Of a stretch of 42,110 bases of DNA, positions 27,830-38,676 are shown piece by piece. The number at the start of each line of letters is the position of its first letter. The stretch's first letter is position 1. The DNA comes from a virus (taxonomy: Duplodnaviria; Heunggongvirae; Uroviricota; Caudoviricetes). Location of the stretch: IMG/VR virus record IMGVR_UViG_2541047875_000007, positions 1 through 42,110 of that record. One strand, given 5' to 3'. A program made the translations under genes and the position numbers. The notes beneath the pieces were generated by a model. It saw only the letters and a list, made by a program, of their open reading frames with translations, was not told the DNA's origin and ran no database searches.

Positions 27830-27918
27830 TTCTTAAAGCCTCCAATTACTCTCCCCCAAATAAAAAGGCCTGCGATTACCAGCAGGCCTGTTATTAGCTC
27901 AGTGATGTAGATGGTCAT
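27826..27918 (-). CDS. Putative 30-aa hydrophobic peptide, translationally coupled between the helicase and the next gene
   Basis: [30 protein letters not shown]; ATG overlaps the helicase stop (ATGA) and its stop overlaps the next ATG; not in the ORF track. Confidence 0.4.
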
Positions 27919-29291
27919 ACGTCAGCCCCTTGTGCATATCGTCTGCCACGCGCAGCAGGTGCATTTGATGCTGTGCAAATCTGTCTGGCTTCATCCTGGT
28001 CACATGCAACAAAGTGTCCGTTGCAGAACCGCTGGTAAACCGTACCAAGTGAGCCAAAACGGTTTTTCGTCACAATGATTTCAGCAAATGGCGCGGCGCT
28101 ACTGTTCTCGTCATATACAGCTTCCCGATAGAGCATGATGATTGAGTCTGCGTCCTGTTCAATGCTTCCTGAATCACGCAAATCTGCGTTTGTCGGGCGT
28201 TTGTTTGGTCGCTTCTCAACATCGCGCGAAAGCTGACTCAGGGAGATAACAGGCGTTTTCAGGTCTTTCGCCATCGCCTTCAGGCTTCCGGAGATGTGAG
28301 CAATTGCGAGGTCGTTGCGATCTGCTTTCGGCTTCTCAATCAGGCCAAGATAATCCACCATGATGAGTGACAGGTTTGGATTTTCCTGTTTGTGCCGTTC
28401 TGCGATTGAGCGTATTTCTTCGACCGATAACCGCGAGGCATCGACTACCCATACATCCAAATCTGCAAGCTGACTCATGCCGTTAGCAACGCGCGCCCAG
28501 CCTTCGTCATCCATCGATGCAGGATTTCGCAGCACACTAACCGACATCCTCCCGGCGTTGGCAATACTTCGCTCTGCAATCTGCAATGCGCTCATTTCCA
28601 TTGAGAAAATCAACACTCCGCGCCGGACGTCAGAACCAGGAATAACGCGGCTTGCAACGCCTTCGGCAATCTTCAGCGCCAGTTCGGTTTTACCCATACC
28701 GGGACGAGCGGCGATAATCACCAGGTCTTCTGCGTTCATCCCTCCGGTGATGGCGTCAAGTTCGTCGATTCCGGTCTTCAGGGTATCTGACTCTTCTCCG
28801 TTCCTCAGACGCCTGTCAAGCGTGTCAGTGTAGTCAGTGATGATTTCCCCTAACCGTACCGGTTTAACCTCGTCACGGGGCTTTCTGATGGCTGAAAGAC
28901 GCTTTACAAGTTCATCCATCGCCTGACTCGATGCGTCGATGGTTCCGCTCTGAATTGGTTCACGCATTTCATCCATGATTTCCAGCACCAGACGGCGGTG
29001 ATAGTTATCCGCGACCATTCCGGCATATCCCTTCAGGTTTGCGGCACTCGGGCAGTTTTTGCTGGTCATCAGGATTGACGTGAAATGCTCCTCTCCGCAC
29101 GCCTCGGCAACCATCAGCGCGTCGATTAAATTTCTGTTTCGCGCCTGCTTGCGGATAACCTCGAAGGCTTTCCGGTAGAGCGGAATTGAAAACGCTTCCG
29201 GCTCCAGCGTTGCCAGAACGTCGCTGGCGGTTGGAGTTAATCCACCAATCAGCAGGCCACCGATAACGCTCGCTTCGATATCCTGTCTCAT
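27915..29291 (-). CDS. Replicative DNA helicase (DnaB family; P22 gene 12-like)
   Basis: 458 aa; Walker A GMGKTE, DnaB-type motifs, typical DnaB N-terminal domain. Confidence 0.9.
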
Positions 29292-30235
29292 GCAATCCCC
29301 CTGTCTGCAAACTTCCCTTCCCGTACTCCCGTTAACGAATCTTCCCTCAACAGGTAATCAAAATCAGCCGTCCAGCCCGTGTCGTTGTCTCCGAAGTAAA
29401 ACGGCTTGGCCTGATGCACAAACGCCCTGACATACGCTCTGAAACCGTCCACGTTTGGCGTTTTCAGTTGCGGGATGATTTTCTTCAGGCGGCGTTTGCG
29501 TTTCTCGTTGACTGCAACAGCATGTGGAAGTCTGTCACCGACTTCGGTGTTGTAGGCGTTCAGGAAGGATTCGTAGTCGATTCGTTCTGCCTTGCGACGT
29601 TCAGGTTTAACCTGCCCATCGCCGCCCCCATTGGGGGGTAGGGGGGTATTATTTATATTCTTGTTAATACCTTCTTGTTCATGATGTGCGGTTGTTTGTG
29701 CGGCTTCATGTGCGCTTTCATGTGCGGAATGTGCGCTGAAAGCTGCGCCATTACTGGCTTCGTCATGTGCGGCATCATGTGCGGTTGTTTGTGCGGCATC
29801 ATGTGCGGGTAAATTGTCCATTTTTTGAGCATATTCATGGTAATTTGTGATGGTGATCACACGACCTTTTTGCTTCTCTCCATCAATGGAGATCATCCCT
29901 TCTTTCACAAAAACCTGAAGCATCCGCTCAACCTGATCACGGCTTGCTGGCTTGCCATGTCTGTCGCATAACTGAAGACCTAAATCAGCTGCTGTCACAA
30001 CCAGTTGACCGGGTTGCAGATGCCATTCATGACCTTTGAAATTCGCTTTGTATGGCTTTCTGGCGGCATTCAGGAGAAGGTTTTCCCACAGGGTGCGAAG
30101 ATAAACATCTTTCGCCCATGACTGTTTCAGAATGCTCCGGTACAACGGAATGTAACCAGTTTTCTGGTTCTCCATCCTGTTGCTCCTGCGCTCGTGTGCG
30201 GCGCTGAAATCGTAGATTTTTGCTGTATTGCTCAT
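29288..30235 (-). CDS. Replication initiator (lambda O / P22 gene 18-like) with internal His/Ala-rich low-complexity linker
   Basis: 315 aa; N-terminus [10 protein letters not shown]... resembles the lambda O N-terminus; linker [40 protein letters not shown] is encoded by the iteron repeats. Confidence 0.8.
29646..29810 (-). repeat. Putative origin of replication: about 9 direct repeats of a TGTGCG(G/C) core inside the initiator gene, flanked by an AT-rich segment (29646-29672)
   Basis: Repeats at roughly 10-12-bp spacing (CATCATGTGCGGTTGTTTGTGCGGC occurs twice); adjacent TATTATTTATATTCTTGTTAATACC; arrangement parallels lambda ori within O. Confidence 0.6.
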
Positions 30236-30237
30236 AA

Positions 30238-30510
30238 CTACCTGCCTTGACGAAAGACCTTAAGAACATCGTTAAACTGACTTACGGATATGTCTTCTTT
30301 GAGAAGCTTTTCCAGAAATGCGTTTGGAATGAACGTATATCCCTCCTCTTTTGGTAGAGACGGGAGCAACGCCCTCGCCTCAGCCTTCAGAAGCTCAGTT
30401 CTGGCAACTTTCACAAAAGAGATTTGAGTTCTTTCATCAATGGAACGAAGGAAGCGCAAACGCTTAGCTTCTTTGTGTGTATCAGGTGGATTAAAGCCTT
30501 TGTTTCGCAT
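30238..30510 (-). CDS. Hypothetical protein (90 aa) between cII and the replication initiator
   Basis: ORF-track ORF 30238-30783 trimmed to ATG 30510 (GAGGT 7 nt upstream); the upstream part of the long ORF overlaps cII in another frame. Confidence 0.55.
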   Translation of the reverse strand: MRNKGFNPPDTHKEAKRLRFLRSIDERTQISFVKVARTELLKAEARALLPSLPKEEGYTFIPNAFLEKLLKEDISVSQFNDVLKVFRQGR

Positions 30511-30532
30511 ATAATTACCTCGTTGGATGTTG

Positions 30533-30826
30533 TTAAAATTCCATTTGTATTTGATCAGAACGCTCGGTTGCCGCCGGGCGTTTTTTATTGGTGAGAATCG
30601 AAGCAACTTGTCGTGCCAATCGAGCCATGTCGTCGTCAACGACGCCCCATTCAAGAACAGCAAGCAGCATTGAGAACTTTGGAATCCAGTCCCTCTTCCA
30701 CCTGCTGATCTGCGACTTATCAACTCCCACAGCTTCCGCTGTCTTCTCAGTTCCAAGCATTGCGATTTTGTTAAGCAACGCACTCTCGATTCTTAGAGCC
30801 TCGTTGCGTTTGTTTGCACGAACCAT
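30533..30826 (-). CDS. cII: Transcriptional activator CII (lambda-type)
   Basis: 97 aa from ATG 30826: MVRANKRNEALRIESALLNKIAMLGTEKTAEAVGVDKSQISRWKRDWIPKF... matches lambda CII. Confidence 0.95.
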   Translation of the reverse strand: MVRANKRNEALRIESALLNKIAMLGTEKTAEAVGVDKSQISRWKRDWIPKFSMLLAVLEWGVVDDDMARLARQVASILTNKKRPAATERSDQIQMEF

Positions 30827-32156: not shown

Positions 32157-32340
32157 CGGCATTCAAAGCAGAAAGCTTTGGGGTGTGGTGAAGCTCAACG
32201 GCGAGCTAGGGAATAGTTTTGCGGTGAAGATTCTAGACAACTAACCGCAGGATGCGCGTAACCCAATCGGCAGCGCACCGATGGAAGCTGGTTCGACTCC
32301 AGCCACCACACCACCAAAGCTAACTGACAGGAGAATCCAG

Positions 32341-32667
32341 ATGGATGCACAAACACGCCGCCGCGAACGTCGCGCAGAGAAACAGGCTCAATGGAAAGCA
32401 GCAAATCCCCTGTTGGTTGGGGTAAACGCAAAACCAGTTAACCGCCCTATTCTCTCGCTGAATCGCAAACCGAAATCACGAGTAGAAAGCGCACTGAATC
32501 CGATAGACCTTACGGTGCTGGCTGAATACCACGAACAGATTGAAAGCAACCTGCAACGTATTGAGCGCAAGAATCAGCGCACATGGTACAGCAAGCCACG
32601 CAGTGAAATGGGTGTGACTTGTGTTGGTCGCCAGAAAATGAAATTAGGCAGCAAACCACTTATTTGA
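32341..32667 (+). CDS. N: Antiterminator N (lambda-type)
   Basis: From ATG 32341: MDAQTRRRERRAEKQAQWKAANPLLVGVNAKPVNRPILSLNRKPKSRVESALNPIDLTVLAEYHEQIES... matches lambda N including the Arg-rich motif. Confidence 0.95.
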   Translation: MDAQTRRRERRAEKQAQWKAANPLLVGVNAKPVNRPILSLNRKPKSRVESALNPIDLTVLAEYHEQIESNLQRIERKNQRTWYSKPRSEMGVTCVGRQKMKLGSKPLI

Positions 32668-37852: not shown

Positions 37853-38676
37853 TCACGATTACCAAAGAGTTCACCAAAGAGCAGTTGATTGAGCAGGCTA
37901 AGAAGAATATTGAGGTTCTTCGCGTTGCGGTGGAAAGAGTCCCAGGCGCTTATGATGCGGCGGTTATTCACCTCAAGCTGGCTGAAATTACGCTGGCATC
38001 GCTGGAAGCAGAGCCAGTGGCAAAGATTATAGCTCACTACCCATTAGGAATTGACGTAGGCAAACAAAAGTTCGTACAGGCCATTGGAGAGCTTCCTGAT
38101 TTTGGCGGATATCTATTCGCTGTGCCGCCAGCGCCGATAGCGTTGGAGGCTATTGAAAATGCAATTGAATACATTCGCAGTATCGCTTTTCACATAGATG
38201 AAGACGATTACCACGGCAAACATATTGCGTATTTCATGCGACAAGCATTGGCCTGGCTGGAAGGGCGTTCATGCAGCGACGACAGACTGGGTAAAGCCGA
38301 GAATCAACCAGTACGCGGCAATGAGTGGACTGGCAATCCTGATATTGATAACGCCATCATCATGCTCGACCGCATAGATACGCTGGAAAATTGTGATGAT
38401 GACCGTATTGAGGGTGTTAAGGCTGTTTTGCGCAGACTGGCTGTCAACTATCCGGTAACTCCGGATGGTTGGATAAGCTGTAGTGAGCGAATGCCGGATA
38501 GCAAAACAGCTGTTCTTGTTGCCAAGGAGTTTGATAGGAAAGGTGACTGGCGAATGAAATGGGCGACTTACATACCGGGGCATCCTGACGCTAATGATGG
38601 TTGGATAATTCCTGGTGCGTCGTGGAAACCGTCACACTGGATGCCGCTACCAGAACCGCCGCAGGAGGCAAAATGA
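37849..38676 (+). CDS. DUF551-domain protein
   Basis: 275 aa; C-terminal GWISCSERMPDSKTAVLV...WIIPGASWKPSHWMPLPEPP matches the remembered DUF551 pattern. Confidence 0.6.
   Translation: MITITKEFTKEQLIEQAKKNIEVLRVAVERVPGAYDAAVIHLKLAEITLASLEAEPVAKIIAHYPLGIDVGKQKFVQAIGELPDFGGYLFAVPPAPIALEAIENAIEYIRSIAFHIDEDDYHGKHIAYFMRQALAWLEGRSCSDDRLGKAENQPVRGNEWTGNPDIDNAIIMLDRIDTLENCDDDRIEGVKAVLRRLAVNYPVTPDGWISCSERMPDSKTAVLVAKEFDRKGDWRMKWATYIPGHPDANDGWIIPGASWKPSHWMPLPEPPQEAK

Follow-up and report, generated by a model that had tools for sequence, protein, structure and literature searches.

A conserved gene between cII and the replication initiator of lambdoid phages encodes a predicted truncated winged-helix protein

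In this study, an additional gene, here called X, was characterised between cII and the gene for the O-type replication initiator in a 42,110-nt stretch of tailed-phage DNA (IMG/VR record IMGVR_UViG_2541047875_000007, Caudoviricetes; hereafter the window). Comparison with related loci indicates that X is a genuine protein-coding gene. The new elements are that its product is recognised as a truncated winged-helix protein, apparently derived from an initiator and tied in position to the initiator start codon, and that it occupies a recurrent accessory slot that lambda lacks. The existence of X is not new; it is already catalogued as phrog_2519 (unknown function) and in RefSeq as "hypothetical protein". 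We tentatively propose that X may be a dispensable, initiator-derived replication accessory that would be co-translated with O and would tune initiation via protein contacts. The features of the region are collected in Table 1.

Table 1. Features in and around gene X (positions in the window)
Feature	Position	Strand	Basis or remark
X CDS, 90 sense codons + TAG (MRNKGF...VFRQGR, stop)	30238..30510	minus	ORF call, phrog_2519 match
Shine-Dalgarno GAGG(T) of X	30518..30521	minus	7 nt before ATG
X residues 10-51, two predicted N-terminal helices	30358..30483	minus	AlphaFold model
X residues 53-88, O-like segment (first strand + two helices of winged helix)	30247..30354	minus	profile comparisons
X-stop/O-start junction: GGCAGG (SD of O, inside last X codons), TAG, TT, ATG	30233..30246	minus	sequence
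cII, 97 aa, lambda-type	30533..30826	minus	PF05269 E 5e-48
Antisense TATAAT, candidate -10 of p_o-like promoter	30510..30515	plus	overlaps X ATG
Predicted oop-like antisense RNA, ~70 nt	30522..30592	plus	ends at terminator hairpin 30557-30584 + T run
Rep-O family initiator, 315 aa	29288..30235	minus	PF04492 E 3.2e-15; phrog_345 E 1e-99
Origin iterons, TCATGTGCGG-type, 12-nt register, two clusters	29678..29820		inside initiator gene
DnaB-type replicative helicase	27915..29291	minus	PF03796 E 1e-78 + PF00772; overlaps initiator stop

An initial annotation, made from the sequence of the window, had described an extra 90-aa frame between cII and the initiator, with a GAGGT ribosome-binding site and an end 2 nt before the initiator ATG. 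Each of these elements is present. The frame lies on the minus strand, which that annotation had left unstated, and runs from an ATG at 30510..30508 to a TAG at 30240..30238, encoding MRNKGFNPPDTHKEAKRLRFLRSIDERTQISFVKVARTELLKAEARALLPSLPKEEGYTFIPNAFLEKLLKEDISVSQFNDVLKVFRQGR. It begins 22 nt after the cII stop, and the dinucleotide TT separates its TAG from the initiator ATG at 30235. With the exception of L005 (TAGGTG), the diverged lineages all have a Shine-Dalgarno sequence, GAGG or GGAG, at an unchanged distance from the ATG. In lambda, as the annotation had also stated, O directly follows cII (cII 38360-38653, next CDS from 38686). A longer in-frame form of X, a 181-aa GTG frame (30238..30783), overlaps cII in another frame; in diverged homologs this extension is closed by an in-frame stop 3-41 codons 5' of the ATG, usually with no alternative start. 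Since the long form is not conserved in these homologs, the 90-aa form is the sole plausible product, in agreement with the earlier view.

The size of the frame is by itself not significant, because 51 ORFs of at least 30 aa occur in the 4.5-kb stretch around X. What raises X above chance is frame-specific purifying selection together with a length, end point and position that are kept in 94 loci. When the window was compared with five diverged lineages, the X frame gave pN of 0.10-0.19, pS of 0.52-0.75 and omega of 0.08-0.14, against omega of 0.94-3.3 in the other two frames of the same DNA. As dN/dS is this low while synonymous sites are near saturation, selection evidently acts on the amino acid sequence. 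Among 12 members with 71-96% identity to the window protein, 42 residues are invariant across the whole length and all end in FRQGR followed by the stop; at 41-62% identity, members still have the core, and their stops differ in position by no more than a few residues. The reading frame is thus conserved in related phages, whereas the initial annotation had named a lack of such conservation as the ground for discarding the gene.

A part of the protein resembles the initiator. Residues 53-88 of X align with positions 24-59 of lambda-type O (GY..IPN..LE.L...DLS..QF..L..FR). The Phage_rep_O profile PF04492 matched 16 of 19 X family members below threshold and in the same register (best E 5.2e-5), and TIGR01610 and phrog_678 agree on the same segment. 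An hhalign comparison of the X family with the lambda-O family gave a probability of 69.5% and an E-value of 4.3e-5; its score of 32.6 is about 9.5 sd above a column-shuffled null (mean 10.8, maximum 20.5, 300 shuffles). The match lies under every curated family threshold: the window protein scores 14.6 bits against PF04492 (cut-off 28.7) and 16.2 bits against TIGR01610 (cut-off 45.5), and therefore belongs to neither family. It covers profile positions 6-39 of the 95 in PF04492, about a third, and the protein ends two residues later. X is not an initiator; a complete winged-helix origin-binding domain is absent.

The remainder of the protein is basic (residues 1-52, pI 10.9) and bears no resemblance to any O leader. 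AlphaFold with only 12 close sequences was uninformative (pLDDT 57.8); a deeper alignment raised the mean pLDDT to 83.7, with 89-95 over residues 31-80. In this model the N-terminal part forms helices at residues 10-23 and 26-51, and X is predicted to fold as a compact small helical domain. The short forms P0040 and P0042 lack the first helix. A sequence search of the PDB gave no match, and no structural relative was found. Searches of Pfam and NCBIfam with X and its relatives matched no Phage_CII, CIII, other regulator or HTH family.

Two other origins or roles were considered. Duplication of the 5' end of the neighbouring initiator was rejected, as profile comparison with the CUS-3-type N-domain family gave no match in register. 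A role as a ClpX decoy is not supported. In lambda O, the effect of trigger factor on degradation by ClpXP resides in residues 1-12; this leader must be free for O to be degraded, and O tagged at its N-terminus is not degraded (PMC7804408). The signal at residues 1-12 is absent from X and retained by the neighbouring O, and no ClpX signal mapping to lambda O residues 24-59 was found in the papers examined.

The junction between X and O is tight. The stop of X lies 2 nt before the O ATG in 92 of 94 loci; in the other two, which are the most diverged, the genes overlap by 4 and 8 nt. The conserved stop/start spacing and the Shine-Dalgarno sequence of O inside X give the arrangement of a translationally coupled pair. 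The lambda SD-ATG-AATACAGCAAAAAT start of O aligns with the X-3'/O-5' junction, so that X occupies about 275 nt flanked on one side by a lambda-like cII/oop unit and on the other by a lambda-like start of O. The DNA of the last X codons also resembles the lambda cII-O intergenic region; this likeness was treated as chance, being absent from diverged X genes. Fusion of X to O by frameshift or readthrough was rejected, as stops close the O frame 5' of 30235 and the frame of O relative to that of X varies by lineage.

The neighbouring gene belongs to a family named "replication initiation O-like" (phrog_345), and its N-terminus is similar to that of lambda O, which starts MTNTAKILNF. Because the leader M[ST]NTAK[IV]YDF is conserved and the 2-nt spacing recurs in 92 of 94 loci, the true initiator start is the one directly after X. 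In public gene calls, residue 21, an internal Met (MENQK...), is often taken as the start of the initiator, which creates a false gap of 62 nt after X; the initiator is called about 62 nt after X in L001, L002, L005, L006, L008 and L009. The iterons of the origin encode the His/Ala-rich linker of the initiator, and a degenerate copy occurs at 30192-30202 in the 5' region of the gene. X contains no iterons, and its DNA was rejected as part of the origin.

These features bear on whether X is a relic, that is, a 5' fragment of a lambda-type O left after a replication-module swap, whose open frame would merely deliver ribosomes to O. The position of the block between two lambda-like borders, the Shine-Dalgarno sequence of O inside it, and an O-like segment that is of lambda type rather than a copy of the neighbouring gene and breaks off before the remainder of the winged helix are what such a relic might look like. 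The reading is contradicted by the dN/dS values, which show selection on amino acids beyond an open frame; the spread of invariant residues over the full length, the confident compact AlphaFold model and the 52 leading residues unlike any O leader also argue against it. We regard a relic as very improbable.

On the other side of X, the 3' end of cII resembles lambda as far as the stop codon, oop terminator included, and its DNA is nearly identical to that of lambda cII. A consensus-based scan found no sense-strand promoter-like or terminator-like sites flanking X, which is thus not a moron by this measure. Because no promoter or terminator of its own was found, X is probably expressed from pR as an early operon gene, with cro, cII, O and the helicase. 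On the opposite strand, the terminator hairpin has a predicted fold of -21 kcal/mol (z -2.64), with compensatory stem changes in L093 and L100, and the ATTATA before the start of X is invariant in 8 lineages; the corresponding lambda sequence, at the O start, is ATTATG. The pO promoter of lambda lies over the beginning of its O gene (PMC6022878). The -35 of the p_o-like promoter is weak, and it was therefore not called by the consensus scan. An oop-like transcript may be made from this unit; Rfam gave no family in the surrounding 7-kb region and no match to an oop model.

This arrangement invites the view that X is a lysis-lysogeny accessory, which would have CII as its target or partner or would affect the antisense control of cII by oop/p_o. 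X always lies directly 3' of a Phage_CII gene, its start codon overlaps the conserved antisense TATAAT, and its Shine-Dalgarno sequence abuts the 5' end of the predicted oop-like RNA. Against this, lambda does without X although its CII is identical and its oop unit the same, and the CII partners of X are highly diverse, with identities of 37-100%. For these reasons X is not tied to CII. Nor does the protein resemble CII, CIII or any regulator family; its sole homology signal is to the initiator. The initial annotation had guessed at a replication or a lysis-lysogeny accessory; the second half of this guess is weakened by the lambda comparison and now seems unlikely. The evidence leans to the first half, through the O-like segment and the juxtaposition with the O start in 94 loci.

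X is a full-length member of phrog_2519 (residues 1-90 on profile positions 1-90, E 1.9e-57). The family is small: 34 matches were found in an index of 5.8 billion proteins. Among 1.84 billion cluster representatives, searched exhaustively with an HMMER profile, there were 15 matches, of which several are fragments or fusions. Only 2 of 185,579 species-representative genomes carry X, and its distribution is restricted to Enterobacteriaceae (Escherichia, Salmonella, Scandinavium and Pseudescherichia). It occurs in 57 of 50,697 phage records, among them a few Lederbergvirus phages (CUS-3, JEP4, HF4s, Kapi1 and Gally), TL-2011a, one Salmonella phage and 48 Stx2a-converting phages of about 65 kb. 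In complete E. coli genomes it is present in 279 of 5,426 (about 5%), always as "hypothetical protein". The CUS-3 record (CP000711) has a 297-bp annotation gap at the position of X, and the 48 Stx2a phage records (LC6160xx) have no feature annotated there. Literature searches returned nothing on X or on a gene at the cII-O position. Broken and recombinant alleles also occur: P0022 is frameshifted after residue 51 and lies on 36 contigs, including one of 4.9 Mb; P0023 is fused into a Dam-like frame and P0030 to another ORF; and P0043 joins a Cro/YdaS-like N-terminus to the C-terminal core of X.

Conservation across P22-like phages had been put forward as a check on the gene. The gene is indeed conserved, but P22-like is the wrong frame for it: X travels with the replication module rather than with the virion type. 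The window itself is a mosaic in which cII and the arginine-rich motif of an N-like ORF (N-terminal; 32281-32667) are lambda-like. Over the O-X-cII block, as far as mid-cII, its identity to CUS-3, JEP4 and HF4s is 98%, and the block shared with the Stx2a phages ends in the 3' end of cII, at the oop terminator. As the shared blocks end inside cII, recombination junctions fall within this gene.

The order cII, X, O was kept in every locus examined, including those of X members at 41-58% identity. Every locus with enough flank has a Phage_CII gene, X and a Rep-O initiator, followed by either a DnaB-type helicase or a lambda-P-type loader. In E. coli, X was found at 291 places in 279 genomes and the initiator N-domain DNA at 293 places in 281 genomes, and the linkage between the two is nearly perfect. 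The two do not co-diverge across lineages: in L094 the values are 76% for the O N-domain and 44% for X, and in L001 they are 49% and 72%. X neighbours at least four O N-domain subtypes (the CUS-3 type, the L012 type, the lambda type in L100 and L101, and a further type in L099), and is also found with several different O C-domain and loader types. Specificity of X for one initiator clade was ruled out by its pairing with lambda-type and other N-domains.

Related phages show other genes at the same place. X is absent from Klebsiella and Yersinia phages whose O N-domains are 74-81% identical, and unrelated genes stand in its place: Klebsiella phage 2b LV-2017 has a ParB/Srx-like gene of 265 aa (L095 1704-2501), and Yersinia vB_YenM_29.18 has a KilAC antirepressor-like gene and a 59-aa ORF (L096 1568-2501). 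In epsilon34 the position is taken by the 53-aa gp49 (L097 1109-1270), which was rejected as a distant relative of X (hhalign E 0.72); epsilon34 gene 49 has been grouped with the ES18-like replication gene region (PMC2629481). All of these genes end at or overlap the O start. The cII-O junction is thus a recurrent accessory-gene slot. As related phages have working initiators of this type but no X, the gene is probably dispensable for the type and seems to be accessory rather than core. The cI-N interval of this immunity region is a variable slot too: in X-carrying relatives it holds different accessory or defence-type genes, namely a BstA_C protein (L002 1552-2457), a HipA_2/DUF3037 pair (L008 727-2378) and a P63C-domain protein (L099 1009-1956).

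Such a slot could receive cargo, and X may be an accessory with no part in the phage's own replication, serving inter-phage competition, anti-defence or host takeover and using the cII-O junction as an insertion site. The unrelated genes in the slot, the apparent dispensability of X and its lack of co-evolution with any one O type are consistent with this. In addition, the O-like segment resembles lambda-type O more than the usual neighbour, as a decoy or poison of heterologous initiators might. The idea of a poison of foreign lambda-type O is weakened by L100 and L101, in which X is paired with a lambda-type O. PADLOC defence profiles gave no weighty match: one X member reached E 0.021 with JetB, and two others matched no profile. 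Without a promoter of its own, X would also be silent in lysogens, and its strict link to the start of O, seen in each of the 94 loci, exceeds the needs of a random cargo slot. We consider cargo somewhat unlikely.

The reading that we tentatively prefer, a replication accessory, is consistent with the O-like segment, which Pfam, TIGR01610, phrog_678 and hhalign detected independently, and with the tight X-stop/O-start spacing, the invariant gene order and the near-perfect linkage to the O N-domain in E. coli. X combines a basic helical hairpin (residues 10-51) with an O-like strand-helix-helix (residues 53-88) that ends before the DNA-recognition helices and the wing; according to this proposal, it would be unable to bind the origin as the initiator does. 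It would be translated together with O by termination-reinitiation coupling and would act by protein-protein contacts, through which the retained O-like surface may engage either O or some partner of its N-domain. In this way X could tune the assembly, activity or stability of the initiation complex. Several observations stand against the proposal: X shows no co-divergence with the O N-domain and pairs with several N-domain, C-domain and loader types, the Klebsiella and Yersinia phages do without it, and the O-like match is below all curated thresholds, with no structural relative found. Because X pairs with several N-domain types and does not co-vary with them, a conserved, possibly host, partner or a generic feature of O seems more likely than a lineage-specific X-O interface. 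In a bolder version, which we think rather doubtful, X would be a stand-alone winged-helix fragment turned regulator whose retained strand-helix-helix surface joins or caps O assemblies, or binds a host factor that usually touches this face of O, and so sets the timing or extent of origin firing. If that were true, X would represent a previously undescribed class of phage-encoded replication-initiation control, made stoichiometric with O through translational coupling.

Lambdoid replication modules are a textbook system that carries medically relevant cargo, and X itself is found both in Stx2a-converting phages (48 records) and in about 5% of the complete genomes of E. coli. A modulating effect of X on the initiator, should it exist, would give lambdoid replication a control step that lambda lacks, and could influence prophage induction output, including the replication of Shiga-toxin phages. 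If X is cargo instead, the cII-O junction would still be marked as a recurrent accessory-gene slot. In practical terms, X is missing from the annotations of CUS-3 and the Stx2a phages, and the initiator start is often mis-called at the internal Met.

Among the closest known systems, lambda O and the families PF04492 and TIGR01610 have in common with X the segment at its residues 53-88 and a location in the replication module. Unlike lambda O, X lacks the N-terminal leader (residues 1-12), the recognition helices, the wing, the iteron-coding linker and the C-terminal loader/helicase-binding domain. With phrog_2519 there is no difference, X being of the same family; the partial O homology is absent from the family names seen here. 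The antisense unit is similar to lambda oop/p_o in its terminator hairpin in the 3' end of cII and in an antisense -10 that lies over the first start codon after cII, but this codon is that of X here and that of O in lambda. The spacer from the cII stop to this ATG is 11 nt shorter than in lambda, and the oop-like RNA is therefore predicted to be about 70 rather than 77 nt. The 53-aa ORF of the epsilon34/ES18 gp49 type, the Klebsiella ParB-like gene and the Yersinia KilAC gene share the position of X and likewise abut or overlap the O start, whereas they have no sequence relation to X, and the ParB-like and KilAC genes have different domains.
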